From the NCBI GenBank assembly GCA_022564195.1, contig JADFLW010000005.1, forward strand, positions 6,808 to 70,807: 64,000 nucleotides of DNA, in the 5' to 3' direction. Source of the DNA: Patescibacteria group bacterium (GTDB lineage Bacteria > Patescibacteriota > Microgenomatia > UBA1400 > Chisholmbacteraceae). The translations under genes were made by a program, and so were the position numbers. Position 1 is the first letter of the stretch, and each line of letters starts with the position of its first letter. Shown one piece after another: positions 1-14,903 of this stretch. The notes under the pieces are model-generated. The model worked only from the letters and a program-made list of their open reading frames with translations, searched no databases and had not been told where the DNA came from.

Positions 1-300
1 CTCAACCAAATCTTCAAATTCACCAATTGCACAAAGAATTTCGGGAACGAGCGGCTCCAGGTGGGTGTCTTCAACGAGGGCACTAACAAGATCAGAGGCA
101 TCTTGAAATCTCTCCAGCGGAGGCACTTGGGAGTCCGGATGCTCTACCCCCACCAGTCTTCGAAGATCGACAACAAACGTTCTCCACGTAACCGGATCGC
201 CTTTGCTACGGACACCAAAATGCAAACCGTCATACACTCCCTGCAGCTCTTCGTTTAATGGGATGGGGGCGACGGTGGCGCGTGAGCGTTCAGTGGTTGC
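1..300 (-). CDS. hypothetical protein, partial. The gene starts at an ATG ending at position 300 and runs off the window at position 1.
   Basis: The minus-strand frame is open from ATG (MATTERSRATVAPIPLNEELQGVYDG...) through position 1. The ATG overlaps the 3' end of the upstream ORF (ATGGCAACCACTGA). No recognisable family. Confidence 0.4.
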
Positions 301-547
301 CATTTCCACTCTCTTTCTTCTGTCGAAAGGAAGCAACAATCCGTTCAATCACTGTTTCAAAAGGAACCTGCTTCAATCTCTTTTCAAGAAGCGCATGTTG
401 AGCCTGAAGAAATGCAAGAACGCTCTGTTGCTCTACCACAGAAGTGGTTTTAAGACGAGAAATGTACAAAGACTTTTGCCCAGGAGTAAGTAACGGGGAA
501 TTTTTAACAAGCTGAATGACCTCTAAGAGAAGATCGTGCTTGTTCAT
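290..547 (-). CDS. hypothetical small protein
   Basis: The ORF is MNKHDLLLEVIQLVKNSP.... The start is preceded by AAAGGAG with a 7-nt spacer, just 3' of a terminator hairpin. No family recognised. Confidence 0.4.
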   Translation of the reverse strand: MNKHDLLLEVIQLVKNSPLLTPGQKSLYISRLKTTSVVEQQSVLAFLQAQHALLEKRLKQVPFETVIERIVASFRQKKESGNGNH

Positions 548-570
548 AAAAATAACAACCAACTCCTTTC

Positions 571-595
571 AAAAACCCGCAGAGTTTCCTGCGGG
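571..595 (-). terminator. rho-independent terminator after RNR paralog 1
   Basis: On the minus strand the hairpin CCCGCAG-GAAACT-CTGCGGG is followed directly by TTTTT. Confidence 0.55.
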
Positions 596-632
596 CATTA
601 CACCATACGCCTAAAAAAACGCAATGTGTAAC

Positions 633-2900
633 CTATACTTCACATTTGCTGTAGCCACATTGTTGACAAGTCGAGCAGCCCTCGGCAAAATACATGGCGC
701 CCCCACATTCAGGACAAATGACGTCCTGAGTTTCCTCCGTAGGGTTGCCTTCTCTGGCTCGCAACGCCAATGGAACAACCGAAAGCTTGCTCTGAATTTT
801 TACTTCACGCTTTTCAGCTGCTACGGTATTGAGAATCTGTACTGCCTTGCTTTTATCCCGATAGATCGTGATCCCCTTACACCCTGTATCCCGAGCAAGC
901 ATATACGCGCGCTCCACATCCTCGATGGTTGCAGACTCAGGGAAATTAATGGTCTTGGACACCGCGTTGTCCGTGTATTTTTGAAACGCCGCTTGCATCC
1001 GCACATGCCAATCCGGCGGAATATCATGGGCTGTGCGGAAGACCTCTTTGATCCACGAAGGCACACCCTCAACATGGTCAACGCTTCCGGTCTTGGAAAC
1101 CTCATGCAGTACAGCATCAATCTGAGTCCGCTCCCCATCACCAAAAGCCTCATCAAGCGCTTGTTCAAATAAAGTATTCGTATATGTTAGTCCATGCTGA
1201 TCTACCACATTTTTCACATACGCCAAAGCGAAGACAGGCTCGATACCCGAGCTGCAATCGGCAAGCATACTGATCGTCCCTGTCGGAGCAATGGTGGTGA
1301 TCGCAATATTCCGCACCCGTGCCGACTTTCTCCCGCGCCTGCCAAGCACAGGATGACGACGGGCAAAACCACTTTGCTTCCACAACGGAAATCCCCCCTT
1401 TTCTCGCGCCAGCTTCGCACTCTCATCCCAGCCAACCTCTTGAATGAACTTCATCACCCTCGAAGCCAACCGCACCGCTCGCTCGCTATCGTAGCGAATG
1501 CGAAGCTTAAGCAACATATCTGCCCACCCCATCACTCCCAAGCCAATCCTCCGCACCCGATGTGCCATATTCTTAACCTGCGGGATAGGATATTCACTCG
1601 CATCAATTCCATCATCCAAAAATCGCACCGCTAGCCTCATCACCCGCTCAAGCTCCTCCCAATCAACACGCGGTTTCACTTGACCATTGCCGCCTGAAGT
1701 AACGAACCTCGATAAATTCAAAGAGCCCAAATTGCAAACATCAAACGGGTGAAGCGGTTGCTCACCACACACATTGGTCGCCTCAATCGGCCCCAGTGCC
1801 GCCAAAAGTGGGTTGTTGCGATTAATAGCATCCAAATAGATCATCCCTGGATCCCCGGTCTTCCATGCCAAGGCGACGGCCTGATCAAAGATCGTCCGGG
1901 CTCCAATAGTCTGCACCACATCTCCAGTCCGAGGGTTAATTAAATTCCATTCCCGATCGCCCTCCACCGCCTTCATGAACGCATCAGAAGCCCCCAGCGA
2001 AATGTTGAAATTAGCGACCTCCCCTTCTTGCGTTTTACAAGCAATGAATTCAAAAATATCCGGGTGGTCGGCATTGAGGATCCCCATGTTCGCACCACGG
2101 TGCCGACCACCAAGCATCACAATCTCTGTTGCCGCATCAAACGCCTTCATAAACGACACCGGTCCTGATGCAAATCCTCCACCACCAACAATATCGCCCT
2201 TCGGTCGCAAACGCGAAAAGTTGTATCCTGTCCCTCCACCCGATTGGTGAATGAGCGCCGTCCATTTGACCGCATCAAAAATCGCACCCATATCATCCTC
2301 AACTGGCAAAACGAAGCAATTCGCCAAAAGACCTCGTTTCCGCCCGGCACCGCGGAAATAGCAACCGGCCGGAACAAACGAAAAGGTGCCAATCATTTCC
2401 GCAAACCGCCCCTCCCAACCCTTTTTCTTCCGTTTCTCCGAAGATGCCACTGTCCGCGCCACCCGCTCAACCGCTTGCCGGGGCGTCTCAATCACATTCC
2501 CCTGTTCGTCTTTGAGAAGGTAGCGCCGCGCCATGGCTTTCAACGCATTCATCGGCATCCCTAAATCATCCTCAACCCCAATGACCTGCCGCGCTGCTCG
2601 AAGATCTGCCCGCTCTTTCCGATAGAGGATGTAGGCCTTGGCAGTCTGGTAGTACGAAGCGGCCATCAGCACTTGCTCAACGATATCCTGCACCTGCTCA
2701 ACAGTCGGTGTCACCTCACCGTTAGCTTTCTCCAAAATTGACATCACAATATCGGCAAGCCGCTTGGCTTCCTTCATCCCAAACTCACCGGTCGCTTTCC
2801 CAGCCTTGGAAATTACAGTGGTAATGTTCCCAGCATCGAGATCAACAATGCGCCCATCCCGTTTTTTTATTTTTTTGATCACAGAAGTCTTATTTCTCAT
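633..2900 (-). CDS. nrdJ: class II (adenosylcobalamin-dependent) ribonucleotide reductase, paralog 1, with N-terminal ATP cone
   Basis: N-terminal ATP-cone (KRDGRIVDLDAGNITTVISKA). RNR catalytic core (LANCFVL, NVCGEQPL, FDVCNLGSLNL). C-terminal Zn ribbon CPECGG...CSTCQQCGYSKC. Confidence 0.9.
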   Translation of the reverse strand: MRNKTSVIKKIKKRDGRIVDLDAGNITTVISKAGKATGEFGMKEAKRLADIVMSILEKANGEVTPTVEQVQDIVEQVLMAASYYQTAKAYILYRKERADLRAARQVIGVEDDLGMPMNALKAMARRYLLKDEQGNVIETPRQAVERVARTVASSEKRKKKGWEGRFAEMIGTFSFVPAGCYFRGAGRKRGLLANCFVLPVEDDMGAIFDAVKWTALIHQSGGGTGYNFSRLRPKGDIVGGGGFASGPVSFMKAFDAATEIVMLGGRHRGANMGILNADHPDIFEFIACKTQEGEVANFNISLGASDAFMKAVEGDREWNLINPRTGDVVQTIGARTIFDQAVALAWKTGDPGMIYLDAINRNNPLLAALGPIEATNVCGEQPLHPFDVCNLGSLNLSRFVTSGGNGQVKPRVDWEELERVMRLAVRFLDDGIDASEYPIPQVKNMAHRVRRIGLGVMGWADMLLKLRIRYDSERAVRLASRVMKFIQEVGWDESAKLAREKGGFPLWKQSGFARRHPVLGRRGRKSARVRNIAITTIAPTGTISMLADCSSGIEPVFALAYVKNVVDQHGLTYTNTLFEQALDEAFGDGERTQIDAVLHEVSKTGSVDHVEGVPSWIKEVFRTAHDIPPDWHVRMQAAFQKYTDNAVSKTINFPESATIEDVERAYMLARDTGCKGITIYRDKSKAVQILNTVAAEKREVKIQSKLSVVPLALRAREGNPTEETQDVICPECGGAMYFAEGCSTCQQCGYSKCEV

Positions 2901-2923
2901 ATGTATTGGAAATGAATCGTTGA

Positions 2924-3349
2924 CTACCGGTCTTCCTCGCCTCCGGCGAGCGGGTGTCCTCCTCGGTGTTTTGCCTTAATCCGATAGTACGCTCGATCCC
3001 TCTCTTCCAGTGTTTTTTCTTTTGAAAACAGGTGTTCAGGCCACTTCTCTTTGTTCTTAGCAAGTTTTTTCTCGAAAGCCTTAGAGACGTCGATGTTCAT
3101 GCTATCCGCAACCACTAACACCCACCATATAACATCAGCAAGCTCATCGCAAACGGGACCATAGAGTCGTGCTTCGCGCTTCACTTCTGCTCCCGTTTTC
3201 CACTGAAAGTGCTCAAGAAGCTCCGCTGCCTCCAACACCAAAGAAAGCGCCGCATCCTTAGGATTTTCCATGCCCGTCCAGCCTCGCTTCTTCCGAAACT
3301 CCAACACTTTTTGTTTGAGCTCTGAAATTGTTGTCTCCTGATCATTCAT
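2924..3349 (-). CDS. mazG: MazG-like nucleoside triphosphate pyrophosphohydrolase
   Basis: MazG/NTP-PPase motifs EEAAELLEHFQW and DELADVIWWVLVVADSMNIDV. Start chosen at MNDQETT, which has a perfect AGGAGG 7 nt upstream; the ORF extends to 3370. Confidence 0.8.
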   Translation of the reverse strand: MNDQETTISELKQKVLEFRKKRGWTGMENPKDAALSLVLEAAELLEHFQWKTGAEVKREARLYGPVCDELADVIWWVLVVADSMNIDVSKAFEKKLAKNKEKWPEHLFSKEKTLEERDRAYYRIKAKHRGGHPLAGGEEDR

Positions 3350-3384
3350 GAACATACCTCCTAACAACATTAACCGACCTCAGC

Positions 3385-3825
3385 TCAACCAGTGCTTTTA
3401 TAATCCTCAATTATCCTGTTATGATCCGCCGCGAGTCTTGGCAATTTGTCAAAGGAAAACCACTTTGCATCCAAGGCATCATCGCTCGCTCTTAACGCTT
3501 CTTCTGAAACCAAAACCTCGTAAACAATCGTCACCCGCTGAAAGGTGTCCCGCTTCGGGTCAGAATATATTCCCACAAACCGACCAAGCTTTCCAGTGAG
3601 TCCCGTCTCTTCCTCAAGCTCTCGCAGCACCGCCTCACGATCATCTTCATCCCAATCAAGCAAACCGCCAGGCAATGCCCAAAATCCTTTCTGCGGCTCA
3701 TTCCCGCGTTTAATCAACACCACTTTCCCATCACGCACAGCCACCGCATCAACGGCAATATTTCGCAAATATCTATGCCCACAATGCGGACACTTCTCCC
3801 CTCGCGTAAGAATCACTTTGCCCAT
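3385..3825 (-). CDS. NUDIX hydrolase with N-terminal zinc ribbon
   Basis: Nudix box GGLLDWDEDDREAVLRELEEETGL. N-terminal CPHCGH... Confidence 0.85.
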   Translation of the reverse strand: MGKVILTRGEKCPHCGHRYLRNIAVDAVAVRDGKVVLIKRGNEPQKGFWALPGGLLDWDEDDREAVLRELEEETGLTGKLGRFVGIYSDPKRDTFQRVTIVYEVLVSEEALRASDDALDAKWFSFDKLPRLAADHNRIIEDYKSTG

Positions 3826-3932
3826 GGACGATTAAACCGAACAATGACTGTAGCCGCATTCCGTACAAGCCCGCCTGCCAAAGCAAATTGACAAGCAAGT
3901 ACGCGACACAAAACTAAACTTTCGTTCAGACA

Positions 3933-6239
3933 TCACACAGCACAATAAGAGTATGCGCATTGCGGGCAGGTCGCGCATCCTTCCGCGAAGGTCATCGCAC
4001 TTCCACATTCAGGACAGACTCCTTCGAGCGCAGCAATCTTCTTCGTCTCCATTCTCTTGGATGCCGGGTGTTTTTCAGCGACGGTACTTAACACTTGATC
4101 CACCTTGCTCCCATCCCGATAAATCGTGATCCCTTTACATCCCAATCGCCATGCTAATAGATACGCGTCCTTCACATCCTTGCGCTTAGCGCTATGTTTA
4201 AAATTAATGGTCTTCGACACCGAATTATCACAATACTTCTGCCATGCAGCCTGAATTTTGACATGCCACGGCCAATCAACCTCATGGGTTGTCACAAACA
4301 CTTCAGCCATCTTCTTCGGTACACCTTTCAAACCACTGAGGCTCCCCTGCTTCTTAAGATGCGAAAGAATCCCTCGTTTCGTGAGCCCTTGAATTTCTCC
4401 ATTCTTAAGCTTAACATCCAAAACCTCCTCAAACACCGGATCCACGATTGTCATCGTCTTCGTCGCCCGATTCCTGCGATCATCCTCAAAGAACGTCCTC
4501 CGGGCAGTGACCAATGAGAATACTGGTTCAATACCTGCACTGCAGTTGGCAAAAAGGCTGATGGTGCCAGTCGGCGCGATCGTCAGCATCGTCGCATTCC
4601 GGTAGCGCTCTGCCGTACCCGCCCAGTAGCTGATATCAAAATTGGGAAAAACGCCACGCGCTTTTGCAAGCTCCATGGAAGCCGCTTCCGCTTCTCTTTT
4701 GATAAACTTTCCCAAGTGATCTGCCATCGCGACCGCTTCGCGGCTGCCATATGGAATGCCAAGCTTAAAAAGAAGATGGGCAAATCCCATCACCCCCAAA
4801 CCGATCTTGCGATTACCATGGCGCACCACCCGCTCAATTTCAGGAAGAATATAGGTATTCACCTCAATCATGTTATCCAAAAACCGAATCGCCGTGCGTA
4901 CCGTCTCCCCAAGATCATCCCAATCCACTTCCCAGCCAAATAGCCCGTGCGCATCGCGGCCTCGCTTGCCATTCTTCCGTTTGACATGCCTAGACAACAC
5001 GATGCTTGAAAGGTTACAACTCTCGTACGGCAAAAGCGGCTGCTCCCCGCATGGATTGGTGGCATCAAGCTTCCCTAGAGTGGGCGTGGGATTGTCCTGC
5101 TCCACGCGGTCCAAAAATATCATGCCCGGATCCCCGGTCTTGTGCGCCGCGGAAACAATCTCATCAAAAAGCCGACGGGCCTTCACAGTTACCGTGGTCT
5201 CACCGGTGCGCGGGTTCACCAAACGCCAGTCTTTGCCCTTCTCAACCGCTTCCATAAACGCATCCACCGCGCCCACCGAAATGTTGAAGTTCTTGATGTT
5301 CCCATCCTCTTCCTTCACCCGAATAAAATCATAAACATCAGGATGATCGGCATTAAGAATCGCCATGTTCCCACCCCGTCGCTTGGCACCCTGCAAGATC
5401 TTCGACAGAGCCGCCGAATACGCCTGTAAAAAGTCCACCGGTCCACTCGCCGCACCCGGAACGTTCTTCACCTTATCTCTGCACGGCCGGATCTTCGAAA
5501 AATTAAACCCAGTTCCACCGTTGTTTTTGTGAATGAGTGCCGCTTCCCCCAACGTTTTAAAAATGGAAGCAATGCTATCCTCAATCCCTAACACGAAACA
5601 GGCAGAAAGTTGCCCAGTCCCCCCATCATTGCCAGCCTCAAACATCGCCTTTCCGGAACAAACGAATTTCAATTTCACCATCCGCTCAAAAAATTCTCGC
5701 GCCATCCGCTCCACCTCTCCTTCGCTCTCCCAGCCAATCTCGGATTTTGCCATGTGCCGCGCCACCCGCCAAAGAAGCGCGCCCGGTGTCTCAATCACCC
5801 GACCTTGCATGTCGGTACGAAGATAACGCTTTTTGGCGACTTCCAACGAGTGCCCGGCCATCTCCGGCTCACGGATCTTCCACTCCGCTTCATCCGCTGC
5901 CTTTCTCGTGCTGTAGAGAATATAATACTTGGCCGTTGCGAAGTAGCCTGCTTGAGCTATAGCCGGCTCAACAATATTGCGGACTTCATCCACCGTGACC
6001 ATCCGGCGCCGACTAAAACCGTTCTGCAGTTTCGCCATCAGACCCTTGATAACTTTTGCCGCCTCTCGCTTCCCAAACTCTCCCGTGTCAGCTCCGGCGG
6101 CAATAACGCTGCGCTCGATCTTTGCCAGATCAAACGGCTCCTCCCGCCCATCCCGCTTTTTCACACCAAGAGAGCGCCTAGTCAGTTGCTCTCTTATGTC
6201 TTCAATTTGTTTTTTACCAAGAGCCAGGATTCCTTGCAT
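3933..6239 (-). CDS. nrdJ: class II ribonucleotide reductase, paralog 2, with ATP cone
   Basis: ATP cone (KKRDGREEPFDLAKIERSV). Core motifs LSACFVLGIED, NPCGEQPLLPYESCNLSS. C-terminal Zn ribbon CPECGSAMTFAEGCATCPQCAYSYC. Confidence 0.9.
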   Translation of the reverse strand: MQGILALGKKQIEDIREQLTRRSLGVKKRDGREEPFDLAKIERSVIAAGADTGEFGKREAAKVIKGLMAKLQNGFSRRRMVTVDEVRNIVEPAIAQAGYFATAKYYILYSTRKAADEAEWKIREPEMAGHSLEVAKKRYLRTDMQGRVIETPGALLWRVARHMAKSEIGWESEGEVERMAREFFERMVKLKFVCSGKAMFEAGNDGGTGQLSACFVLGIEDSIASIFKTLGEAALIHKNNGGTGFNFSKIRPCRDKVKNVPGAASGPVDFLQAYSAALSKILQGAKRRGGNMAILNADHPDVYDFIRVKEEDGNIKNFNISVGAVDAFMEAVEKGKDWRLVNPRTGETTVTVKARRLFDEIVSAAHKTGDPGMIFLDRVEQDNPTPTLGKLDATNPCGEQPLLPYESCNLSSIVLSRHVKRKNGKRGRDAHGLFGWEVDWDDLGETVRTAIRFLDNMIEVNTYILPEIERVVRHGNRKIGLGVMGFAHLLFKLGIPYGSREAVAMADHLGKFIKREAEAASMELAKARGVFPNFDISYWAGTAERYRNATMLTIAPTGTISLFANCSAGIEPVFSLVTARRTFFEDDRRNRATKTMTIVDPVFEEVLDVKLKNGEIQGLTKRGILSHLKKQGSLSGLKGVPKKMAEVFVTTHEVDWPWHVKIQAAWQKYCDNSVSKTINFKHSAKRKDVKDAYLLAWRLGCKGITIYRDGSKVDQVLSTVAEKHPASKRMETKKIAALEGVCPECGSAMTFAEGCATCPQCAYSYCAV

Positions 6240-6268
6240 ATAAGAGGCGTCCTATAATCACTACACTA

Positions 6269-8254
6269 TCAGGCTACATTGCAATAGCTGTAGGAGCAAT
6301 TCGGGCAGGTTGCACATCCATCCTGAAACACCATCGGCGTTCTGCAGTCCGGACAAATTCCCTCATCTCCGTTCACCACAACATAGCGATGTTCATGGAG
6401 TTCTTGCCGCACCTCACCGTTCACTTCTCCGTCGACAAGCTCGACTACTTCCGATGAGCCTCCAGAAGAAACCTTCCCAAGATTCAACACCTGCTGCGAA
6501 CGGCTTTTATCACGATAGATGGTAATGCCCATACAACCCGTGTCATAAGCCATAAGGTAGGCACGCCGGACATCCTCAACCGTTGCCGTCTCTGGCAAAT
6601 TAATGGTCTTGGAAACCGCGCTATCAAAGTATCGCTGCCATGCTGCCTGCATCTTGACATGCCACTTCCAACGAATATCATGGCTTGTTGCAAAAATTCG
6701 CTGAAGATCATCCGGTACTCCGTCGATATCCTGACAGCTTCCGGTCTGTGCAACCTCACTCAATATCCGTTCTCTACGCTTTCGACTCCTCACCCGGTTG
6801 GCAAGCTGTCGTTTAAACTCAGCGTTGAACTCGGTTAATTCGGTTTTACCGATATCCAAAATATTGCGTCTCGTGAAGCTCAATGCAAAAATCGGCTCGA
6901 TTCCAGAAGAGCAGGAAGCTAAAATACTGATAGTCCCGGTTGGCGCTATGGTCGTAACGGTGCTGTTGCGCATCGCAGGATATTTTTTCTCCCATCGACT
7001 ACCTTCAAAGGCAGAAAACGATCCGCGGGCGCGTCCCATTGCAACCGACGCATCCCGTGCCACGCGGTCTACGAACCGAGCGATCTTCCGCCCAATTGCC
7101 ACCCCTTCTGTTGAGTTGTAGGCAATACCAAGGCGAAACAGCAAATCGGCAAACCCCATCAGCCCCAAACCGATCTTGCGTGTTCTCTTCGACATCTCAT
7201 CAATTTCTGCCAAAGGATATTCACAAACATCAATGACATTATCCAAAAACCGAACCGCCAGCCTCGTTACTTCCTCCAATTTCTTCCAATCAACAAGCAT
7301 TTCAATATCTCTTTTCTCTTTACCCCTATGCTCTTTAGTCTTATTCTCTTTAGTCCTTTGAATAACAAATTTCGCCAAATTAATGGAACCTAAGTTGCAG
7401 CTTTGATAGGGCAGAAGTGGTTGCTCGCCACACGGATTGGTCGCCTCAATCTCTCCCAGGTGGCGGATAGGACAGGCTGCATTCATCCGGTCCAAGAAAA
7501 CCAGACCAGGATCCGCCACCTCCCACGCATATTCACAAATTTGTTCAAAGATCTCCCGTGCCCCAACCCGTCGGACGGTCTTGCCAGTGTGAGGCGCAAC
7601 CAAAGCGTAGGTCCCATCACGACGCAAGGCTTCCATAAAACTATCGGTGATGCCAACGGAAACGTTGAAGTTCCGGAGTCGTGTGCCACTGGCTTTCGCA
7701 ACGATGAACTCACGAATATCCGGATGGTCAACACGCAAGATCCCCATCATCGCCACCCTCCGACTCGACCCCTCGTTAATCACTTGAGCCATATGATCAA
7801 AAAGATCCATGTATGAAACAGGGCCTGAGGCAATCCCGCCCGTGCTCGACACCAAACTTCCCCGAGGCCGAAGACGAGAAAACGCGAAGCCGACACCCCC
7901 CCCTGTCCGCAATACAAGCGCTGCATCATGAAGAGTCTTGAAGATGCTCTCCAAGCCATCATCGATAGGAAGAACAAAACATGCCGAAAGCTGATTCACC
8001 CCATTACGACCCGCATGCATGAGTGTCGGGGAGTTGGGCAAAAATTCAAAACGTATCATCATCCGATAAAAGGCTCTGGCGTCAACCACCACATCCTCAC
8101 CATAGCTTCCACTCGCAGCCGCTATCGCATTGGCAACCCTGCGAAACATCTGCTCAGGAGTTTCAGTGACATTCCCTTTATCATCGCGCTTCAAATAATC
8201 GCGCATCTGAAGGACAGTTTTTGCGTTTTCCGATAGGCCTCTCATTACCAACAT
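6269..8254 (-). CDS. nrdJ: class II ribonucleotide reductase, paralog 3, lacking the ATP cone
   Basis: Core motifs LSACFVLPIDD, NPCGEQPLLPYQSCNLGSINL. C-terminal Zn ribbon CPDCRTPMVFQDGCATCPNCSYSYC. No N-terminal ATP-cone. Confidence 0.85.
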   Translation of the reverse strand: MLVMRGLSENAKTVLQMRDYLKRDDKGNVTETPEQMFRRVANAIAAASGSYGEDVVVDARAFYRMMIRFEFLPNSPTLMHAGRNGVNQLSACFVLPIDDGLESIFKTLHDAALVLRTGGGVGFAFSRLRPRGSLVSSTGGIASGPVSYMDLFDHMAQVINEGSSRRVAMMGILRVDHPDIREFIVAKASGTRLRNFNVSVGITDSFMEALRRDGTYALVAPHTGKTVRRVGAREIFEQICEYAWEVADPGLVFLDRMNAACPIRHLGEIEATNPCGEQPLLPYQSCNLGSINLAKFVIQRTKENKTKEHRGKEKRDIEMLVDWKKLEEVTRLAVRFLDNVIDVCEYPLAEIDEMSKRTRKIGLGLMGFADLLFRLGIAYNSTEGVAIGRKIARFVDRVARDASVAMGRARGSFSAFEGSRWEKKYPAMRNSTVTTIAPTGTISILASCSSGIEPIFALSFTRRNILDIGKTELTEFNAEFKRQLANRVRSRKRRERILSEVAQTGSCQDIDGVPDDLQRIFATSHDIRWKWHVKMQAAWQRYFDSAVSKTINLPETATVEDVRRAYLMAYDTGCMGITIYRDKSRSQQVLNLGKVSSGGSSEVVELVDGEVNGEVRQELHEHRYVVVNGDEGICPDCRTPMVFQDGCATCPNCSYSYCNVA

Positions 8255-8284
8255 CCTCCGAGTTTACCAAGCGAAGCCGCCTTG

Positions 8285-8740
8285 CTATGTGGACTGCTCC
8301 AGCTGTTTAATCTCCCGTTTGAAATCGTCAATATCTTGAAAATCCCGATACACGCTCGCAAACAGCAAATAGCCAACGGGGTCCAACTTGCGTAAACGGG
8401 TGATCACCAACTTCCCAACCTCCCAACTTTTTATTTCTTTATTCTTCCTGCGCCTAATCTTCCGCTCAACATCCTCAATGAGTTTCTCAATCTGCTCGAT
8501 GGATACTGGCCGTTTCCAAGTAGCCTTCATGAGTCCCTTTTTAATTTTCTCTCGATCAAATGGCTCGCGAGTTCCATCTTTCTTAAGAACGACAAGATCA
8601 ATGCCCTCAATCCGCTCGTACGTTGTGAACCGTTTCTCGCACACGTTGCATTCGCGTCGCCGCCTGATGCTTTCTTCATCCTCAGTCAGTCTGCTCTCCA
8701 AAACGCTGCTATCACGCTGCCCGCAATACGGACATTTCAT
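8285..8740 (-). CDS. nrdR: transcriptional repressor NrdR
   Basis: N-terminal Zn ribbon MKCPYCG...CNVCEKRF followed by an ATP-cone. 151 aa. Sits immediately upstream of RNR paralog 3. Confidence 0.9.
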   Translation of the reverse strand: MKCPYCGQRDSSVLESRLTEDEESIRRRRECNVCEKRFTTYERIEGIDLVVLKKDGTREPFDREKIKKGLMKATWKRPVSIEQIEKLIEDVERKIRRRKNKEIKSWEVGKLVITRLRKLDPVGYLLFASVYRDFQDIDDFKREIKQLEQST

Positions 8741-8786
8741 GAACCTACTACTCCTACCGTAAAAAATGTTATGTAAGAATAAAAAA

Positions 8787-8802
8787 ACACTAGATGTAGT
8801 GC
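8787..8802 (-). promoter_or_regulatory. NrdR box (operator) upstream of nrdR
   Basis: ACACTAGATGTAGTGC matches the 16-bp palindromic NrdR-box consensus acaCwAtATaTwGtgt. It lies about 45 nt upstream of the nrdR start, next to SD GGTAGGAG. Confidence 0.55.
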
Positions 8803-9006
8803 TTAAATAAACGCTATGCCACTACCCCTAGGCTGTCAACCATCAATTACTGTATCAAAGGAGATCGTCCAGAGTACAGGGGTCGGATGAGCAAACAGTG
8901 ACGAGTCTCCGTCCACATCCCTTCCTCAATCCCACAAACCACCGCGACCCAATTGAAACATTTTGTACTCAATAAAGATAAAATTACCCATAAAAAAGTG
9001 AAGTCT

Positions 9007-9027
9007 CCCCGGCCTAAGAGGCCGGGG
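9007..9027 (-). terminator. GC-rich hairpin, possible terminator, in the 470-bp non-coding region
   Basis: CCCCGGC-CTAAGAG-GCCGGGG is a perfect 7-bp GC stem. On the minus strand a T6 run lies 9 nt downstream, so the terminator assignment is weak. Confidence 0.3.
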
Positions 9028-9210
9028 CTTCTATCAATTGATAGACTGAAACTCCGTACCGAAAGCCCCAAGAAAACTATCATTCATCCCCGCGTTGAAG
9101 CTCCTCTGCCTAACTTTCCTAAAGCGCAAATCCCCGGAGCGTGGGCTTTCGCAAAGGGGACTAACAGCACGAGGCTTTCTGGTACTGGAGTAAAAAGAAA
9201 TACGGAAATT

Positions 9211-10524
9211 TTAATCAAACGTAACTTCGCAATGTTTGCAAATATCACAAGGCCCAACCATCGTATTCTCAGCGCGACAAACACGACAGGTGCCCGAATG
9301 ATAGGTCCATGACTTCTCACTGCTTCCAAACGATACTCCATCTAATGCAAGAACGGTAAACCCGTCCAAGGAAAACCCAATCGACGCAATCATTCCCGGC
9401 GGGCAACCACCACCCCCGACTCTCTGCGTTTCAAGATCTCCATAGCGATTAAGGAGATGTGCTTGTAGTCGTCCCGCTTCTATTACAACTGAATCCGCCG
9501 CGACACCCCCTTCGAAGCCCCTTAAGTGAAAACTCCTATTAACGTCCCGCCTCCATCGACAATCTTCCGTCAACTGATGAGCAGTGAGAATCTGCCCGCA
9601 CTCCGCAAAGACTTTGACAGCCCGCCGTGCAAAACTGTACGCCAGCTCTAATTCCGAGAGGCCCTTCTGATCCAAGCCCATTGAATGGGTACGCAGTTCC
9701 TCTCGTAAAGCTTCTGCTAAAAATGCAGCCGATTCCCGTAGCTGCGGCTCATAGGATGCAAAAGTTTCGGGAGCGAGACTCGAACCGAAACCAACACCAG
9801 AAACAACAAATCGATCATCGCTGTTGGCAATTTCATCAATCCGCGCAACAACATCATCAGCCGTTTGCATTATTGGGTTGTCCGAAATATCAATAGGACT
9901 TGAAACAAAAAACTCTGGAGTACTCTGCGAATCAGGAGGAGCGGCAACCCACTCAGCGAAACCAGACAGTTGAGCATGACCCTCAAGCGACAGCGCATTC
10001 TTATAAAACATCACACGGACTCGCCTACCTGCTCCTGGATCTCCTTCGACTCGATACACATACGTCAAGCTCACGCCGGTATAACCATCCTCTGCCGGTC
10101 CTGGAGGATAACTAAGAACGAATGTCGAACCATCGGGACAATCAAGGCATCTGCGTCGAAGCTCCCGCATGCCAACAAGCTCTGCGAGTTCTCGCTCGTA
10201 CGGCTTGCCAGCCGCCCTTCTCTTCTTTACTCCATTCAATGTAATGCGAGTGATGTCACCGAACGCTCGATGGTCAGCGGTAGTTAAAATCAGCCGTTCG
10301 TTTTCTCCTTCGCTAAACTCAAACTCAAAACTGCCTCGCCGCAGAACATCTTCTCCAACGGCGGTGGAAAAGTTAGCATAAAGACGTCGCTCAATGCTCT
10401 CTGTTACTCCACCAACGCGCAGGGCGGCATCAAACTCATCACGAAAATCAAAATGGGGATTAGTTACTTCAAGAACATTCATCCCCTCATGAAGATAAAC
10501 ACCTCTGCGTTCTGCTGCAGCCAT
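9211..10524 (-). CDS. hypothetical cytoplasmic protein with C-terminal Cys-rich zinc-ribbon
   Basis: 437 aa with no recognisable domain. C-terminus is CRVCRAENTMVGPCDICKHCEV. Start has GGAGA SD. Preceded by copy A of the duplicated element. Confidence 0.6.
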   Translation of the reverse strand: MAAAERRGVYLHEGMNVLEVTNPHFDFRDEFDAALRVGGVTESIERRLYANFSTAVGEDVLRRGSFEFEFSEGENERLILTTADHRAFGDITRITLNGVKKRRAAGKPYERELAELVGMRELRRRCLDCPDGSTFVLSYPPGPAEDGYTGVSLTYVYRVEGDPGAGRRVRVMFYKNALSLEGHAQLSGFAEWVAAPPDSQSTPEFFVSSPIDISDNPIMQTADDVVARIDEIANSDDRFVVSGVGFGSSLAPETFASYEPQLRESAAFLAEALREELRTHSMGLDQKGLSELELAYSFARRAVKVFAECGQILTAHQLTEDCRWRRDVNRSFHLRGFEGGVAADSVVIEAGRLQAHLLNRYGDLETQRVGGGGCPPGMIASIGFSLDGFTVLALDGVSFGSSEKSWTYHSGTCRVCRAENTMVGPCDICKHCEVTFD

Positions 10525-10556
10525 AAAAAATCTCCTGTACCCGACAGGAGGAATAC

Positions 10557-10580
10557 AAAGAAAACCTTCCCGAAGGAAGG
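10557..10580 (-). terminator. intrinsic terminator-like hairpin at the gene-proximal end of copy A
   Basis: The minus strand reads GGCCTTCCTTCGGGAAGG followed by TTTTCTTTG. The 3' arm of the hairpin contains GGAAGG. Confidence 0.5.
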
Positions 10581-10593
10581 CCTAATCTTAAAC

Positions 10594-10624
10594 TAGACGC
10601 TTAACGCTAGGCGCTAGACGCTAA
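10594..10624 (-). repeat. heptad tandem array TAGACGC-TTAACGC-TAGGCGC-TAGACGC-TAA, array 1 of copy A
   Basis: Four tandem 7-nt units TWRRCGC read on the plus strand. Duplicated at 10689-10719 and in copy B. Confidence 0.7.
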
Positions 10625-10688
10625 TTTATGCTCCTGCTCGGAAGAAAAGTTCCTCAAGCAACGTTCCTGACTCCTTAGTTCCTAACCC

Positions 10689-10719
10689 TAGACGCTTAAC
10701 GCTAGGCGCTAGACGCTAA
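10689..10719 (-). repeat. heptad tandem array, array 2 of copy A
   Basis: The same 31-nt sequence as 10594-10624. Confidence 0.7.
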
Positions 10720-10747
10720 ATTACAGTTGCGGCACAGCCCCAGGTTC

Positions 10748-10779
10748 CTCGCCTTCGCCGGAGCTCCGGCGAAGGCGAG
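10748..10779. repeat. perfect 32-bp palindrome CTCGCCTTCGCCGGAGCTCCGGCGAAGGCGAG
   Basis: The sequence equals its own reverse complement, with 16-bp arms. It lies about 25 nt 3' of the membrane-protein stop codon. It is flanked by a GGTTCC direct repeat. The equivalent segment in copy B is degenerate. Confidence 0.7.
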
Positions 10780-10803
10780 CCACTGGGTTCCGCTGCTACG
10801 AGG

Positions 10804-11391
10804 TCAAATAGTTATCAAACGTACAATGTCTAGTTTTCGTATCGATTGCCGGTTTAAAAAAGTGCGCCATATCTTGCTTCTAACAAACATCCGCAAAAAC
10901 TCCACCACGACAAACCCTGCCGGAACAAACAACAACGTGCTTGCCATCTGCATCCTAAGAAACGGCAACCCGTTGATGTATGACAGCAAAAGTCCCGAAA
11001 AATCTCGAGAATACATTCCCCAACCGTCAAGCAGCCACACCCCAAAGTTCGTCCACGAATAGAAGAACAGCGTTGCGCCCACACCCACGCCCGTCGCCAA
11101 AACCACGCGTTTCGCGCCGCCTGGGTTCCTCCGTCTCCCAAACACACCACTTGCGACCACTGCCGGAATCAGGAATCCGCTCCAGGTGAACAAGAAGATG
11201 TTCGTATTACCAAGAATCGTGTCAGAAAGCACCATCACCAAGAACACCAACCATAACGCCCACCGTCGCCCCAAATAAAAACTTGTTAAAAGCATCACCA
11301 TGGTTACCAACTCCACATTAGGTCCCAAATCAAAAACAACCCGTTCCAAAAAGGCCAACAAAACCAAAGTGATAAAGAAAAGTATTCGCAT
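10804..11391 (-). CDS. polytopic membrane protein, possibly an ECF-transporter S-component-like substrate-capture protein
   Basis: About 195 aa with 5-6 predicted TM helices (MRILFFITLVLLAFL..., LFTWSGFLIPAVVASGVF, ASTLLFVPAGFVVVEFL). Start chosen to give a 4-nt gap after the upstream stop. The ORF is open to 11481. Confidence 0.5.
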   Translation of the reverse strand: MRILFFITLVLLAFLERVVFDLGPNVELVTMVMLLTSFYLGRRWALWLVFLVMVLSDTILGNTNIFLFTWSGFLIPAVVASGVFGRRRNPGGAKRVVLATGVGVGATLFFYSWTNFGVWLLDGWGMYSRDFSGLLLSYINGLPFLRMQMASTLLFVPAGFVVVEFLRMFVRSKIWRTFLNRQSIRKLDIVRLITI

Positions 11392-11395
11392 TAAA

Positions 11396-11815
11396 TTATT
11401 TCGGCTCAATATATCTCCACTCAATGAGATCGCCATCGCGTACAACTTTCTTATCCGCCGCAACATCCCCTGACTCTCCATTCACAATGTAAATCCAGGC
11501 CCGCTCAGCCAAGCTCTCCTTTCCTCCAATTGCCTTCACAAAAATCCCAAAATCATACTGCTGCGAATCAATAGCAAGTCCTTCCTCACGAGCAACATGC
11601 TCCAACGCTCCATACACCGTACTTTCTGCAGGCACCCCAGAATAAGTAGAAATATTCCCGTCGCCAAAATCCAAAACCAGTGTTACACCTTGACGAACCT
11701 GTTCAACGGCAGCAGGAGGTGGAACCTCCATCCCAATCCCAGGCTGTCGACGCAACGCCCGCCACCCACCTCCGACAAGAACAAGAACAAAAAGAGCCAA
11801 AAGAAATTTTTTCAT
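11396..11815 (-). CDS. secreted DUF4430-like (transcobalamin-like beta-grasp) protein, putative cobalamin-binding
   Basis: Signal peptide MKKFLLALFVLVLVGGG. The C-terminal motif WIYIVNGE...WRY is typical of DUF4430. The family link is from memory, not a search. Confidence 0.5.
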   Translation of the reverse strand: MKKFLLALFVLVLVGGGWRALRRQPGIGMEVPPPAAVEQVRQGVTLVLDFGDGNISTYSGVPAESTVYGALEHVAREEGLAIDSQQYDFGIFVKAIGGKESLAERAWIYIVNGESGDVAADKKVVRDGDLIEWRYIEPK

Positions 11816-11816
11816 A

Positions 11817-11839
11817 ATAAAAACCTTCCCGAAGGAAGG
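11817..11839 (-). terminator. terminator-like hairpin of copy B, overlapping the ribosome-binding site of the DUF4430 gene
   Basis: The minus strand reads GGCCTTCCTTCGGGAAGG-TTTTATT-ATG. GGAAGG in the 3' arm sits 7 nt from the start codon. Confidence 0.5.
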
Positions 11840-12050
11840 CCTAATCTTAAACTAGACGCTTAACGCTAGGCGCTAGACGCTAATTTATGCTCCTGCTCGG
11901 AAGAAAAGTTCCTCAAGCAACGTTCCTGACTCCTTAGTTCCTAACCCTAGACGCTTAACGCTAGGCGTTAGACGCTAAATTACAGTTGCGGCACAGCACC
12001 GGATTCCTCACTCCACCGAAGCTCCGGCGAAGACGAGCCACCGGTTTCCG
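11817..12050 (-). repeat. copy B of the ~234-bp duplicated element
   Basis: See copy A. Its terminal hairpin and T-tract abut the ATG of the DUF4430 gene. Confidence 0.75.
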
Positions 12051-12157
12051 CTGCTTAAAGTCCACTTGTCAATGAAATCACGATAACAACACTATCAACA
12101 CGCTGTCAATAGACAGTTCCGTCCTTCGCTTCCTCTAGCTCTCTTCTTACGCTTGCT

Positions 12158-12865
12158 CTATTCCTCCTCTAGCTCTCCCTCAACCCCTTCCATCTCGGTC
12201 TCCTCTTGTCCATTTCCTGCCTCTAGAGCATCTTCAGAATCGCCCACTGCACCCTCATCTTCTTGAACCTGCTCCCCGACCACCTCCACAGCACGTTGGT
12301 ATCCACTCCTACTCTTTTCCAGAGACTCCTCCACGCTTGATTTTGCTTCATCAGGAACCCTGGCTAGAATACCAATGAGCACCTTCTCGTGTTTCCTGGA
12401 AGCACGCACGAATCGCTCATAAAACTCCTGGGTATCCTTACCAGCCTCGGTCGAGCGCTCCGCTTCCCCGACGGCTCGCTCAAGATAGATCTCCGCCTTC
12501 GTAACAGTCGATGAAGCCAAGCCAGCCTTGCCTTTCTCCGCCAGATCCAAAGCGGAAGCTATGCGCTTATCTCCAAAGTGAAGCATCAACTCAGCTCGAG
12601 CCAGGGCATCCCGCGTCAGCCAAAGCTGGATGCGATCACGAATCATCTTCAGAAAATACAACGGGTGATCAGGCAAAATTCCAGGGTACGGCAATGGATA
12701 CTCATCTGCCGCTTCTGCCAAGCGCTCTTCCACCACAACCTCCTGAGACTCCGCTTCGCTTTGAGCGGCAAGGGTAACAAGTGCAGGCCTTGAACGCCAA
12801 ATGGAAACGCCGGCCACAGAAACACCAAACAGGAAGACAAAAAGTACAAGCACGTTTCGCTTCAT
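12158..12865 (-). CDS. secreted or membrane-anchored DUF5667-like protein with an acidic C-terminus
   Basis: N-terminal anchor MKRNVLVLFVFLFGVSVAGV, an alpha-helical region and an acidic tail EETEMEGVEGELEEE. Resembles CPR-type DUF5667 proteins. Confidence 0.5.
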   Translation of the reverse strand: MKRNVLVLFVFLFGVSVAGVSIWRSRPALVTLAAQSEAESQEVVVEERLAEAADEYPLPYPGILPDHPLYFLKMIRDRIQLWLTRDALARAELMLHFGDKRIASALDLAEKGKAGLASSTVTKAEIYLERAVGEAERSTEAGKDTQEFYERFVRASRKHEKVLIGILARVPDEAKSSVEESLEKSRSGYQRAVEVVGEQVQEDEGAVGDSEDALEAGNGQEETEMEGVEGELEEE

Positions 12866-12896
12866 GCTACTCTCACCTCCAATCTGCTCTCTTGGG

Positions 12897-14132
12897 TTAT
12901 TCTCGAACCCCCAAATACTCAACGATCACTCGTGCATAAATCTCAGTTACTTTCCGTAAACTCTCAAGATCCACCCATTCATTCACACCATGATGGCCCT
13001 CGCCATCTGGACCAAACCCACTCACCGTAGGAATATCATGCGTGACCAACATCCATGCATCATTCCATGGTCCCGAACCCTCAATCTTTGGTGCAAACCC
13101 CAAAACCTCCTTTGTGTGTGTAGAAAGAAGCTCCACAATTTCTTCCTTACGATCAATCTCAACTGAAGGAACAAAGAGAAGATCTTCAAACTCATACCGA
13201 AGCCCAGGAATTCCAGCAAGTTTCTCACGGATCCAAATCTTCACCTGTTTATCGCTATTCCCTGGCATGAGACGGACATCACCATAAGCAACGCACTTAT
13301 CCGGTACACTACTGATAGAAACACCTCCAGAGATCTTGGTCGGAAAGGTTAAAACCGGAGATCGTCTTTGAAAAGCTCGCGCTGGCTTAAAGGGGATCTC
13401 AAGATTCTCCAAAGCAATAATCACTCGCGCCATATCAAGAATCGCGTTGCGCCCCATCTCCTTGCGCTCCCAAGCCCGACGCCCAGTATGAATCGCCTCC
13501 CCAAAGACAGTCAGCTTAAACCGGTAACCTCCTCTGGTACCAATCGAGATTGTATCAGTTCCAGGCTCTCCTATAATGGCAACGCGGGCGCGAATACCCT
13601 GCCCAAGCAGATAGCTTGTTCCAAACTCACTGCATCCACCCGGTTCTTCATCTACGGTAAATTCAAGGACGAGCCTTCCATCCAAGGCAACACCCGAATC
13701 CAAAAGCGCTTTCACCGCATAAACATAAGCCGAAAGAGCACCTTTCATATCAGCCGCGCCAACCCCATACAGTTTTCCATCACGCACAGCACCGGAGTGC
13801 GGATCAAGCGTATATCCCTCCCCAGCAGGTGCCGTGTCCATATGACCATTGAGAATCATACTCTTACGAAACCGCCGAGGTCCCCAATAACACACCACAT
13901 TTGGACGCTTCTTCGAAACTCCCAAGCGCCGGGGCGGTAGTCCAAATGAGCGCAATCGTTCATAAATAAGCTCCGAAACACCCAATTCGATCGGCGTCTT
14001 GGGGCTTGACTGCTCGGGGGTATACGGATTTTCGCTGTCTTCGCGCACGAGAGCCGAGGCAAAACTTGTCTGCTCGCTAAAGTTTTTTGAAACGACTGCG
14101 GAAATACGTTGGAAAAGCCGTGAAGAAATCAT
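12897..14132 (-). CDS. M20-family metallopeptidase (ArgE/DapE/CPG2-like)
   Basis: Motifs NGHMDTAP, GVGAADMKG and a TVDEEPGG-like segment are the metal-binding residues of the M20 family. Confidence 0.8.
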   Translation of the reverse strand: MISSRLFQRISAVVSKNFSEQTSFASALVREDSENPYTPEQSSPKTPIELGVSELIYERLRSFGLPPRRLGVSKKRPNVVCYWGPRRFRKSMILNGHMDTAPAGEGYTLDPHSGAVRDGKLYGVGAADMKGALSAYVYAVKALLDSGVALDGRLVLEFTVDEEPGGCSEFGTSYLLGQGIRARVAIIGEPGTDTISIGTRGGYRFKLTVFGEAIHTGRRAWERKEMGRNAILDMARVIIALENLEIPFKPARAFQRRSPVLTFPTKISGGVSISSVPDKCVAYGDVRLMPGNSDKQVKIWIREKLAGIPGLRYEFEDLLFVPSVEIDRKEEIVELLSTHTKEVLGFAPKIEGSGPWNDAWMLVTHDIPTVSGFGPDGEGHHGVNEWVDLESLRKVTEIYARVIVEYLGVRE

Positions 14133-14196
14133 GACGTAATGGTGATTCTACCATCAATAAGAAAAAAATCCAATCCACTAGAGGAAAAAGACAGAA

Positions 14197-14874
14197 TCAG
14201 ATAAATAACCCCGCCGCCATCGCCCAAAACGTATGAGAGAGAATGGGAGCAAAGATATTTCGGGTCCGAAGCATTAAAACCGCATTACCAAAGCCGACGA
14301 GGAAAAACAAGACAAGCTGAATGACAACAAATAAAAGTTGAGTATTCGACTCCACGAAAAGAATCGGGAGATGAAGCAAAGTGAACAAAAGCGAAGCCAG
14401 GCCAACGCTTCCCCACTCATCTTTCAAGACGTGCATAAACCGCAAAAGCATAAACCCAGAAAAAACGATCTGCTCCCAAAACGCGGTGATGAAAGAAAGC
14501 GTAAAGACGCTCAGTAAACGAAGGGGGGCAACGGAAAATCCACTCACGAACGTACCCCCAGAAAAGACAAGAATCCCTAATCGAACGGCGAGGATGTACA
14601 CCGCGCCCAGCGTCAAACCATAATAAAGCGAAAGAGAAAAACCCGTCTTGCGAAACCCAAAAGCCCGCAACACCTCTCTCCATCGTTTACCTTCGCCTGC
14701 AAGAACGGAAAACACTGGAGGCAGAAAGATAAGCGGCTTAAAAAGAAGCTCTTCAATGAAGACGGGAAACCGAAAAAGCAACCGGTAGAGTCCCCACAGA
14801 ATAAAGATCACCACGTAGACCATCAAGGTCCGTCGAAGAATTTCAATTCTTTTTTCTTGAGATGCTTCGCTCAT
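14197..14874 (-). CDS. CPBP-family intramembrane metalloprotease (CAAX protease/Abi)
   Basis: Multi-TM protein. Has an EExxxR-like WEQIVFSGF motif and FTLLHLP, both typical of the CPBP family. Confidence 0.7.
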   Translation of the reverse strand: MSEASQEKRIEILRRTLMVYVVIFILWGLYRLLFRFPVFIEELLFKPLIFLPPVFSVLAGEGKRWREVLRAFGFRKTGFSLSLYYGLTLGAVYILAVRLGILVFSGGTFVSGFSVAPLRLLSVFTLSFITAFWEQIVFSGFMLLRFMHVLKDEWGSVGLASLLFTLLHLPILFVESNTQLLFVVIQLVLFFLVGFGNAVLMLRTRNIFAPILSHTFWAMAAGLFI

Positions 14875-14903
14875 CGGTCTCCCAACAATCGAAAAAAGGC
14901 TTT

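Follow-up and report, generated by a model that had tools for sequence, protein, structure and literature searches.

The 64-kb stretch of DNA analysed here (the window, meaning the whole of that length) comes from a Chisholmbacteria-like member of the Microgenomates, within the Patescibacteria or candidate phyla radiation (CPR), and carries six adjacent minus-strand genes, three of which encode vitamin B12-dependent class II ribonucleotide reductases (RNRs) of the NrdJ family. RNR provides the sole de novo route to DNA precursors and, in the textbook scheme, a single enzyme makes the four deoxynucleoside triphosphates (dNTPs) under allosteric control. In the list of open reading frames (ORFs) of the window, the gene order is nrdR-nrdJ(A)/RNR3-nrdJ(B)/RNR2-nudix-mazG-nrdJ(C)/RNR1, where A, B and C are positions in the array, and the gaps between successive genes are 30, 29, 107, 14 and 23 bp. 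This order had been proposed, with the coordinates and lengths of the genes, in an earlier reading made from the sequence only; ORFs and Pfam/NCBIfam matches confirm all of it.

The first gene of the operon, nrdR (8285..8740), encodes a Zn-ribbon and ATP-cone repressor that scores 191.6 bits against TIGR00244 (NCBIfam cut-off 124.65) and also matches PF22811 and PF03477. It is followed, still on the minus strand, by the genes of RNR3 (6269..8254, 661 aa, position A), RNR2 (3933..6239, 768 aa, position B), a Nudix hydrolase (3385..3825, 146 aa, PF00293), a MazG-like all-alpha nucleoside triphosphate (NTP) pyrophosphatase of the DCTPP1/RS21-C6-like kind (2924..3370, 148 aa, PF12643) and RNR1 (633..2900, 755 aa, position C). 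The start of RNR3 may be at 8245 rather than 8254, since the public protein P0241 has 658 aa. The three RNRs score 681.5, 628.5 and 684.6 bits against TIGR02504 (NrdJ_Z, cut-off 399.95) and just 64–79 bits against TIGR02505, the model of the monomeric ribonucleoside-triphosphate reductase (cut-off 340), and therefore belong to the dimeric NrdJ type. As previously claimed, profile matches place an ATP-cone in RNR1 (E-value 6.6e-22) and RNR2 (1.3e-16) and none in RNR3.

The promoter upstream of nrdR (8811..8839, minus strand), read directly, comprises a -35 TTGACA (8839-8834), a 17-nt spacer and a -10-like TAGCGT (8816-8811). Two NrdR boxes overlap this -35/-10 region: box 1, with the core GCCTAGGGGTAGTG (8820..8833, minus strand), lies between -35 and -10, and box 2, with the core CACTACATCTAGTG (8788..8801, minus strand), lies just downstream of -10, the full order towards nrdR being TTGACA, GCCTAGGGGTAGTG, GCA, TAGCGT, nine bases and CACTACATCTAGTG. 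Their start-to-start distance is exactly 32 bp, which fits the spacing of the NrdR operator described as two 16-bp boxes with a 15-16-bp linker (PMC13584703). Box 2 is the sole match to CACTAnnnnTAGTG in the 64-kb window when up to one mismatch is allowed, and the pair are the only sites with two mismatches or fewer in positions 1-9300, a scan that found no internal NrdR box or promoter within the island. Among 34 related loci, all have at least one NrdR box and 18 have a pair exactly 32 bp apart, an event met in 1 of 6800 shuffles. Furthermore, the arrangement TTGAC(A)...TAGCTT/TAACTT recurs upstream of nrdR in L001, L004, L005 and L006 (such labels denote related genomic or metagenomic loci). 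A generic sigma-70 and terminator scan returned counts near the shuffle expectation.

At the opposite end of the array, about 37 nt past the RNR1 stop codon, an intrinsic-terminator-like hairpin (571..596, minus strand) consists of a 9-bp GC-rich stem followed by UUUUU; its fold of -15.5 kcal/mol (z = -3.9) was equalled in 0 of 200 shuffles, and it likely marks the end of the operon. One NrdR-box promoter, tight gaps, the lack of any internal box in the scanned region and a terminator after RNR1 argue that the six genes most likely form one NrdR-autoregulated operon. Another GC-rich hairpin, AGCCCCGGCC...GGCCGGGGAG with a T-run (9006-9030, minus strand), lies in the 470-bp spacer between nrdR and the 437-aa ORF upstream of it, and is probably a terminator shielding the nrdR promoter from upstream transcription.

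Catalytic equipment and divergence of the three reductases

Residues are numbered as in the NrdJ of Thermotoga maritima, whose sequence was reconstructed from the alignment (residues 16-100 and 122-450) and whose structure 1xjk is matched by RNR3 at 396 bits. The thiyl-radical C322, the redox pair C134 and C333, and N320 and E324, which hold the ribose, are conserved in the three NrdJs of the window; a table of eight genomes shows the same five catalytic residues in all 24 of its NrdJs, and almost every one of some 350 family members keeps them. The radical-site motif of RNR1 reads N-V-C-G-E, and RNR1, RNR2 and RNR3 all end in a tail of the form C-x2-C-x9-C-x2-C-x2-C-x4-C. The sequence-only reading had attributed the catalytic Cys/Asn/Glu residues and a C-terminal CxxC...CxxC to all three enzymes and had pointed to the loss of essential residues as one way in which it could fail; careful alignment upholds the attribution and finds no such residue missing in any paralog. 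All three NrdJs look catalytically competent, as judged from these residues. Their identities to the L001 orthologs are nearly equal (71% for RNR1, 70% and 69% for the other two), so that none of them seems to be under relaxed constraint. Decayed copies or pseudogenes were considered and rejected on the same two grounds, intact catalytic residues and similar ortholog identity (69-71%).

The three proteins share 42.4-42.9% identity with one another in one comparison; in another, their mutual identity of 43-45% stands beside 39-44% with the T. maritima enzyme. DNA similarity between their genes is limited to short patches of 70-77%, with no long repeats. Their mutual distance is therefore about the same as their distance to T. 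maritima NrdJ and, since they also have one-to-one orthologs elsewhere, the view that they are old paralogs and not recent duplicates stands.

The loop that binds the substrate phosphates is among the regions in which they differ. Loop grafting by Schell et al. (PMC8365446) showed that P-N-S-P directs the enzyme to ribonucleoside diphosphates (NDPs) and P-[A/S]-G-R to NTPs, and these motifs together cover more than 97% of NrdJs. RNR3, which belongs to family A1, carries the NDP-type P-N-S-P (FLPNSPTL), a motif present in 12/12 members of its own cluster and in 104 of the 120 proteins of its hit set, non-CPR outgroups included. The loop of RNR2, a family B member, is C-S-G-K (C-[AS]-G-K in 74 of 87 members of the family), and that of RNR1, a derived subtype of family C, is P-A-G-C (the more distant members of family C have P-A-G-R in 74 of 119 cases). 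Neither RNR1 nor RNR2 matches the NTP-type motif P-[A/S/G]-G-R (or P-S-M-R, P-Q-G-S-P); their loops retain the pocket-opening Gly without the Arg, and their sequences suggest that both are NTP-like at most by descent.

Differences extend to the residues that bind effectors and read them out, whose roles are taken from PMC4728125 (Table 4 and text). Loop 2, KQGSRRRGA at residues 202-210 in T. maritima, is NEGSSRRVA in RNR3, LQGAKRRGG in RNR2 and MLGGRHRGA in RNR1. Taking RNR3, RNR2 and RNR1 in that order, position 158 (Lys in T. maritima, a ligand of the effector phosphate) holds R, K and Q, position 203 (Gln, in contact with CDP) holds E, Q and L, and position 207 (Arg, in contact with the substrate phosphate) holds R, R and H. 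D141 and R171 of the effector site are kept in all three enzymes and S91 is found in RNR3, the fully canonical set of specificity-site and loop-2 residues (K158, R171, Q203, R207) being present solely in RNR2.

These differences are properties of families rather than of single proteins: the phosphate-loop and loop-2 motifs are constant within families and different between them. A scan for columns that are at least 75% conserved inside each of the three families and carry three different residues between families retained 9 of 414, eight of which (V139, I143, V150, K158, V193, N195, I198 and K202) lie within T. maritima residues 139-202, that is, in the helices of the four-helix-bundle dimer interface, where the specificity site resides, and at the first residue of loop 2. 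The enrichment has P = 1.7e-6, or 3.9e-5 when eligible columns are restricted to equally conserved ones. The phosphate loops also combine into haplotypes along the array, PNSP-CSGK-PAGC in the window, L001, L006, L040/41 and L063 and PNGR-CAGK-PAGR in L003, L009, L018, L024, L029 and L081. The earlier suggestion that the paralogs might differ in allosteric control or in substrate form (NDP or NTP) is well in line with ATP-cones in RNR1 and RNR2 only, with P-N-S-P in RNR3 and with the Gly-containing, NTP-like variants of RNR1 and RNR2.

Conservation and labile parts of the array in Microgenomates

Within Microgenomates (Woese-, Beckwith-, Pace- and Chisholmbacteria), a separate large family, at 52-78% identity, corresponds to each paralog, and the same contigs turn up in all three hit lists. 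One exact-sequence look-up of RNR2 gave no match; its hit list includes an identical NCBI protein annotated 'Patescibacteria group bacterium'. The closest named genome, L001, a 70%-identical metagenome-assembled genome of Candidatus Chisholmbacteria, keeps the order of all six genes, each of which has a one-to-one ortholog there (66-79% identity). More generally, nrdR and three tandem nrdJ genes are found in all nine related contexts that were fetched (L001, L003, L005, L006, L008, L009, L010, L013 and one more), among them the 1.27-Mb Woesebacteria record CP065002.1. As a genome-collection scan gave two loci, a census was carried out on metagenome contigs; it comprised 80 loci anchored on the middle gene, of which 41 are true family-B loci, and these loci are not phylogenetically independent. 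A NrdJ lies immediately upstream of the family-B gene in 29 of the 30 loci with a visible flank (27 by automatic count, L018 and L031 having been re-scored from gene lists because of overlap-threshold artefacts) and downstream of it in 21 of 22; A-B-C is complete in 17 of the 18 loci visible on both sides. The same scan gave a single NrdJ in 14 of 17 control loci from other taxa. Only two NrdJ genes were seen in each of L020 and L038. The triple array thus proves conserved in relatives (9/9 fetched contexts, 17/18 census loci), where the sequence-only reading had advised looking, and the description of the arrangement as unusual holds among bacteria generally but not within this lineage, in which it is the norm. 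One locus, L044 (Ga0210006_1000757), has four NrdJ-like genes in a row (out, B, C, C2), together with a PduO adenosyltransferase gene and two Nudix genes on the opposite strand.

A neighbour-joining tree (p-distance-derived distances, 200 bootstraps, no broad outgroup) groups the genes by array position and not by genome, with bootstrap values of 100% for B, C and A1 and 92% for A2. Therefore, the array predates the divergence of the lineage and has not been homogenised. This clustering by position, at 92-100% bootstrap, also led to the rejection of recent duplication or gene conversion. Position B belongs to family B in every array fetched. At position A, either A1 (the case in the window) or A2 is found, and in Woesebacteria the divergent C2 holds position C; read from the tree and the gene orders, the A1/A2 exchange means that one paralog family took the place of another in situ while the operon position stayed fixed. 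A1 groups weakly (46%) with non-CPR NDP-type enzymes. Where A2 occupies position A (L003, L009, L018 and others), its loop is P-N-G-R and an N-C-C motif occurs at the second redox cysteine; in Woesebacteria, A2 carries a TSCPD domain. Family B includes NrdJs of 1000-1250 aa (for example P0041, P0043, P0045 and P0070) with intein/Hint domains (PF14528, PF14890), and one intein of a family member sits at the N-P-C-G-E radical site.

The array lies within a conserved chromosomal block (penicillin-binding proteins, Rce1-like protein, M20 peptidase, DUF5667 ... DUF8128) in every genome viewed. A phage or mobile origin of the island was considered and is unsupported, given that this block surrounds the array in each of them.

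Both hydrolases encoded between RNR2 and RNR1 are recognizable members of their families. The Nudix protein matches PF00293 at 2.2e-23 (83.2 bits, cut-off 21.1) and has an intact Nudix box, G-LLDWD-E-DDREAVL-RELEEETGL (pattern G-x5-E-x7-R-E-U-x-E-E-x-G-U); its best solved relatives are generic proteins resembling MutT or ADP-ribose pyrophosphatase. The MazG-like protein matches PF12643 at 7.1e-11 (42.6 bits, cut-off 27) and, among solved structures (4qgp, 6sqw, 2a3q and 4dk4), an archaeal pyrophosphatase (4qgp, 5.8e-16), DCTPP1/RS21-C6 (6sqw, 1.2e-11) and dimeric dUTPases (1e-4). The NUDIX-MazG pair stands between B and C in the window, L001, L015, L017, L018 and L021, and MazG without NUDIX in L003, L009 and L050. 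Many loci lack both, the RNR2 and RNR1 orthologs (76-84% identity) being directly adjacent in L040, L041 and L063. This distribution indicates that the two hydrolases are optional, evolutionarily labile accessories of the array. The earlier idea of a dedicated dNTP-supply and sanitation module is thus upheld with a correction: one NrdR-box promoter, one terminator and a MazG-like protein resembling DCTPP1 and dUTPases support the grouping of supply with probable sanitation, but the hydrolases are a labile insert and not a fixed part of it.

Other public assemblies reproduce the window at 99.6-99.9% identity over positions 3988-15481, 3988-10656 and 1-2883. The public contigs L011 and L012 both end at window base 3988, and L014 matches to 2883 and then diverges. 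The NUDIX-MazG insert may be strain-variable, given that relatives at 76-84% identity have adjoining RNR2 and RNR1 orthologs. As for the triple array itself, a collapsed repeat or another assembly artefact is excluded by low paralog identity, the lack of long repeats and independent assemblies.

Neighbouring genes and the possible supply of B12

All the RNRs visible in the window are of the B12 type, and genes related to cobalamin accompany them. Downstream of the array, most loci carry genes for Maf and for a cob(I)alamin adenosyltransferase (CobA/BtuR or PduO type), those of this organism lying beyond the start of the window, as seen in L014; the nearby adenosyltransferase genes indirectly support the use of adenosylcobalamin (AdoCbl) by the three NrdJs. 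On the other side of nrdR (10804..11815, minus strand), Pfam matches identify a DUF4430 protein with a signal peptide and a transcobalamin-type domain, and a DUF6580 membrane protein, neither of which received an NCBIfam name. Transcobalamin-type binders have DUF4430 as their C-terminal domain (PMC4350170); the pair also occurs beside the NrdJ arrays of L005, L008, L037 and L085, and DUF4430 is fused to DUF5667 in L013 and in the P0291 locus. These proteins are candidates for a B12 capture/uptake pair that is associated with the operon while lying outside it. A direct repeat of about 237 nt (10561-10797 and 11820-12055; 190 nt at 98% and 45 nt at 87%) flanks the two genes, which are absent from the corresponding position in L001. 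Given this repeat and this absence, the two genes resemble a cassette that entered between the DUF5667 gene and the 437-aa ORF or underwent duplication at its junctions there.

The 437-aa ORF (9211..10524, minus strand), directly upstream of the nrdR promoter, ends in CxxC...CxxC. Neither Pfam nor NCBIfam assigns it to a family, and blastp does not align it with the ORF that holds the same slot in L001. ORFs of similar size occupy this slot in relatives (437 aa in L001, 383 in L003, 369 in L006 and 436 in L009), and its position seems to evolve fast.

The rest of the window encodes the housekeeping functions of a small genome, such as penicillin-binding proteins, Cmk, pentose-phosphate enzymes, the Suf system and thiol-redox proteins. 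At Rfam gathering thresholds, the whole window contains no tRNA, no cobalamin riboswitch and no other known RNA. Most genes are on the minus strand, and the GC skew of the plus strand is uniformly and strongly negative (-0.05 to -0.35 in 2-kb windows), without a switch anywhere in the 64 kb.

Proposed division of labour, competing explanations and known systems

It is considered rather probable that the three NrdJs are non-redundant AdoCbl isozymes that divide labour under one NrdR switch. NrdR would sense the ATP/dATP ratio and switch all three reductases together. RNR3 (P-N-S-P, S91, R207, no ATP-cone) would be an NDP reductase without dATP shut-off. RNR2, with C-S-G-K, the canonical K158/R171/Q203/R207 and an ATP-cone, would descend from an NTP-type enzyme, and so would RNR1, with P-A-G-C, Q158/L203/H207 and an ATP-cone, which would be the most derived of the three. 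As RNR1 and RNR2 would differ in substrate-phosphate and effector binding, the three enzymes, each with its own feedback, could between them take charge of distinct bases and/or forms of the substrate. Sub-functionalisation would then have touched the chemistry of the phosphate loop, the binding of effectors, the read-out by loop 2 and the possession of an ATP-cone that senses dATP. The DCTPP1-like MazG, and perhaps the Nudix protein too, might hydrolyse dCTP/dUTP or damaged dNTPs coming from the reductases; its products dCMP/dUMP might feed thymidylate synthesis, or the pool might simply be cleaned of unwanted dNTPs. The nearby Maf, cobalamin adenosyltransferase and candidate B12 uptake pair would supply and protect the system. 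In a bolder and more doubtful version, the logic of one enzyme for four substrates would have been partly hard-wired, in Microgenomates, into three paralogs that share the work by subset of bases and/or phosphorylation states, each responding to effectors in its own way, or into defined mixed oligomers, and the RNR1 subtype might use a non-canonical substrate.

Several observations weigh against a division of labour as set out above. C-S-G-K and P-A-G-C are outside the motifs tested by Schell et al., making the phosphate specificity of RNR1 and RNR2 an extrapolation, and RNR1 is devoid of both basic substrate-phosphate residues (the apical Arg and R207), a loss that makes an altered substrate or a lower activity possible. 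Many related arrays carry three NTP-like loops (PNGR-CAGK-PAGR), which also led to the rejection of an NDP-versus-NTP split as the general reason for three copies. Moreover, the hydrolases are missing from the close relatives L040, L041 and L063 and hence are not essential to the array, and their junction in this organism (2884-3987) comes from one assembly.

Another explanation would be functional redundancy: the isozymes would not divide substrates but would be retained because they add dosage or robustness (for example by tolerating different temperatures, oxidants or cobamide types). In its favour, all three are undamaged and share the dimeric class II architecture, and many bacteria keep several RNRs (PMC8365446 counts 1108 genomes with more than one NrdJ). 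However, this explanation is unlikely: the shared promoter leaves no room for differential expression, the triple array is almost always retained despite small genomes (contigs of about 0.8-1.3 Mb, including CP065002.1), and the residues that differ are conserved by family and located in specificity-determining regions. Co-transcribed paralogs could alternatively be subunits of one machine, forming mixed dimers or higher oligomers. The fixed gene order, the single promoter and the tight spacing would suit such an assembly, as would the location of five of the nine discriminating columns at hydrophobic sites of the two interface helices (V139, I143, V150, V193 and I198), a pattern to be expected of a re-packed interface; in addition, the C-terminal domain of the NrdJd of S. 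nassauensis drives higher oligomers with inter-subunit electron transfer (PMC5704485). The same interface changes would nevertheless equally prevent cross-dimerisation, and no paralog lacks any catalytic residue, either effector-site residue (D141, R171) or a redox tail of its own. Furthermore, position A is filled by A1 or A2 and position C by C or C2 depending on the lineage, and loci with just two NrdJs (L020, L038) are awkward for obligate partners, so that this explanation too appears improbable.

A departure of the RNR1 subtype alone (P-A-G-C, L203, H207, Q158, N-V-C-G-E) from canonical reduction, towards another substrate (for instance a modified nucleotide or one in another phosphorylation state) or a role mainly as regulatory or sensor subunit, is given little credit. 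It would account for the loss of the apical Arg, Arg207, Gln203 and Lys158, a change that co-occurs with a P-N-S-P enzyme at position A in 6/6 fully visible arrays of that type; yet the catalytic Cys/Asn/Cys/Glu/Cys, the ATP-cone and the six-Cys tail are conserved, RNR1 evolves no faster than its neighbours (71% to L001 versus 70% and 69%), and Arg208 together with a new Arg three residues past the loop (PAGCYFR) could compensate. Finally, an assembly artefact or a recent tandem duplication is exceedingly improbable. Two public contigs stop at base 3988, and another departs from the window upstream of 2883, but these breaks bracket just the NUDIX-MazG insert, which varies among relatives, whereas the paralogs have low identity and no long DNA repeats and many independent genomes and samples repeat the gene order.

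The components are all of known families, and genomes with several NrdJs of mixed phosphate specificity were counted before (PMC8365446). In the searchable literature, where subscription journals are thinly covered, no earlier description was found of the nrdR-nrdJ-nrdJ-nrdJ operon of Microgenomates, of the position-specific NrdJ families with their C-[AS]-G-K and P-A-G-C loops, or of the way in which residues that distinguish the paralogs cluster at the specificity site. According to Schell et al. (PMC8365446), the benefit of having several NrdJs "remains elusive". The arrays of Microgenomates amount to a natural experiment, in which very small genomes nearly invariably keep three NrdJ paralogs, in fixed order, under one NrdR operator; why organisms keep several class II RNRs becomes directly testable by comparing three proteins. 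They also add phosphate-loop motifs beyond the tested catalogue. The adenosyltransferase and the candidate B12-capture genes that travel with the array would imply a strong reliance of biosynthetically poor symbionts on imported B12, which is relevant to understanding, and perhaps cultivating, Patescibacteria.

Among the closest known systems is the NrdJd of T. maritima (1XJE/1XJK), which shares with the NrdJs of the window the TIGR02504 match, the catalytic residues, D141/R171 and the position of loop 2, as well as P-N-S-P in the case of RNR3. However, T. maritima has one enzyme, whereas the window has three in one operon, 39-44% identical to it, of which two have ATP-cones, two have non-canonical phosphate loops and all have a six-Cys tail. 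That tail recalls the NrdJd of S. nassauensis (Loderer et al. 2017), in which six cysteines (C920/923/933/936/939/945), four as Zn ligands in two CxxC pairs and two as a redox pair, are proposed to serve in zinc binding and electron relay (PMC5704485). The spacing is nearly equal and a similar function would be predicted in the window, but in S. nassauensis the array closes a much longer domain (about 230 residues) and occurs in one enzyme, instead of forming a short tail on each of three paralogs. The multi-NrdJ genomes of Schell et al. (2021) likewise mix NDP-type and NTP-type loops, in 760 of 1108 genomes; their count (PMC8365446) is made at genome level, operon structure, three-gene array and lineage assignment are not described in the part read, and C-[AS]-G-K and P-A-G-C are absent from its catalogue (PNSP, P[ASG]GR, PSMR, PQGSP) and from the supplement searched.

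The MazG-like protein aligns over about 100 residues with DCTPP1/RS21-C6 and the dimeric dUTPases, including the acidic E-x-x-E ... E-x-x-D metal motifs, but, unlike them, it is a short protein of a bacterium and is encoded inside an RNR operon. As for regulation, nrdR is often autoregulated and linked to nrd genes, with boxes that are separated by a 15-16-bp linker and overlap the promoter (PMC13584703, PMC9110341). The NrdR regulons of E. coli, Streptomyces and Pseudomonas have in common with the window a Zn-ribbon and ATP-cone NrdR and two partially palindromic promoter boxes. In these model organisms, however, RNRs of different classes are controlled from separate promoters, whereas here one operator precedes nrdR and three class II paralogs.

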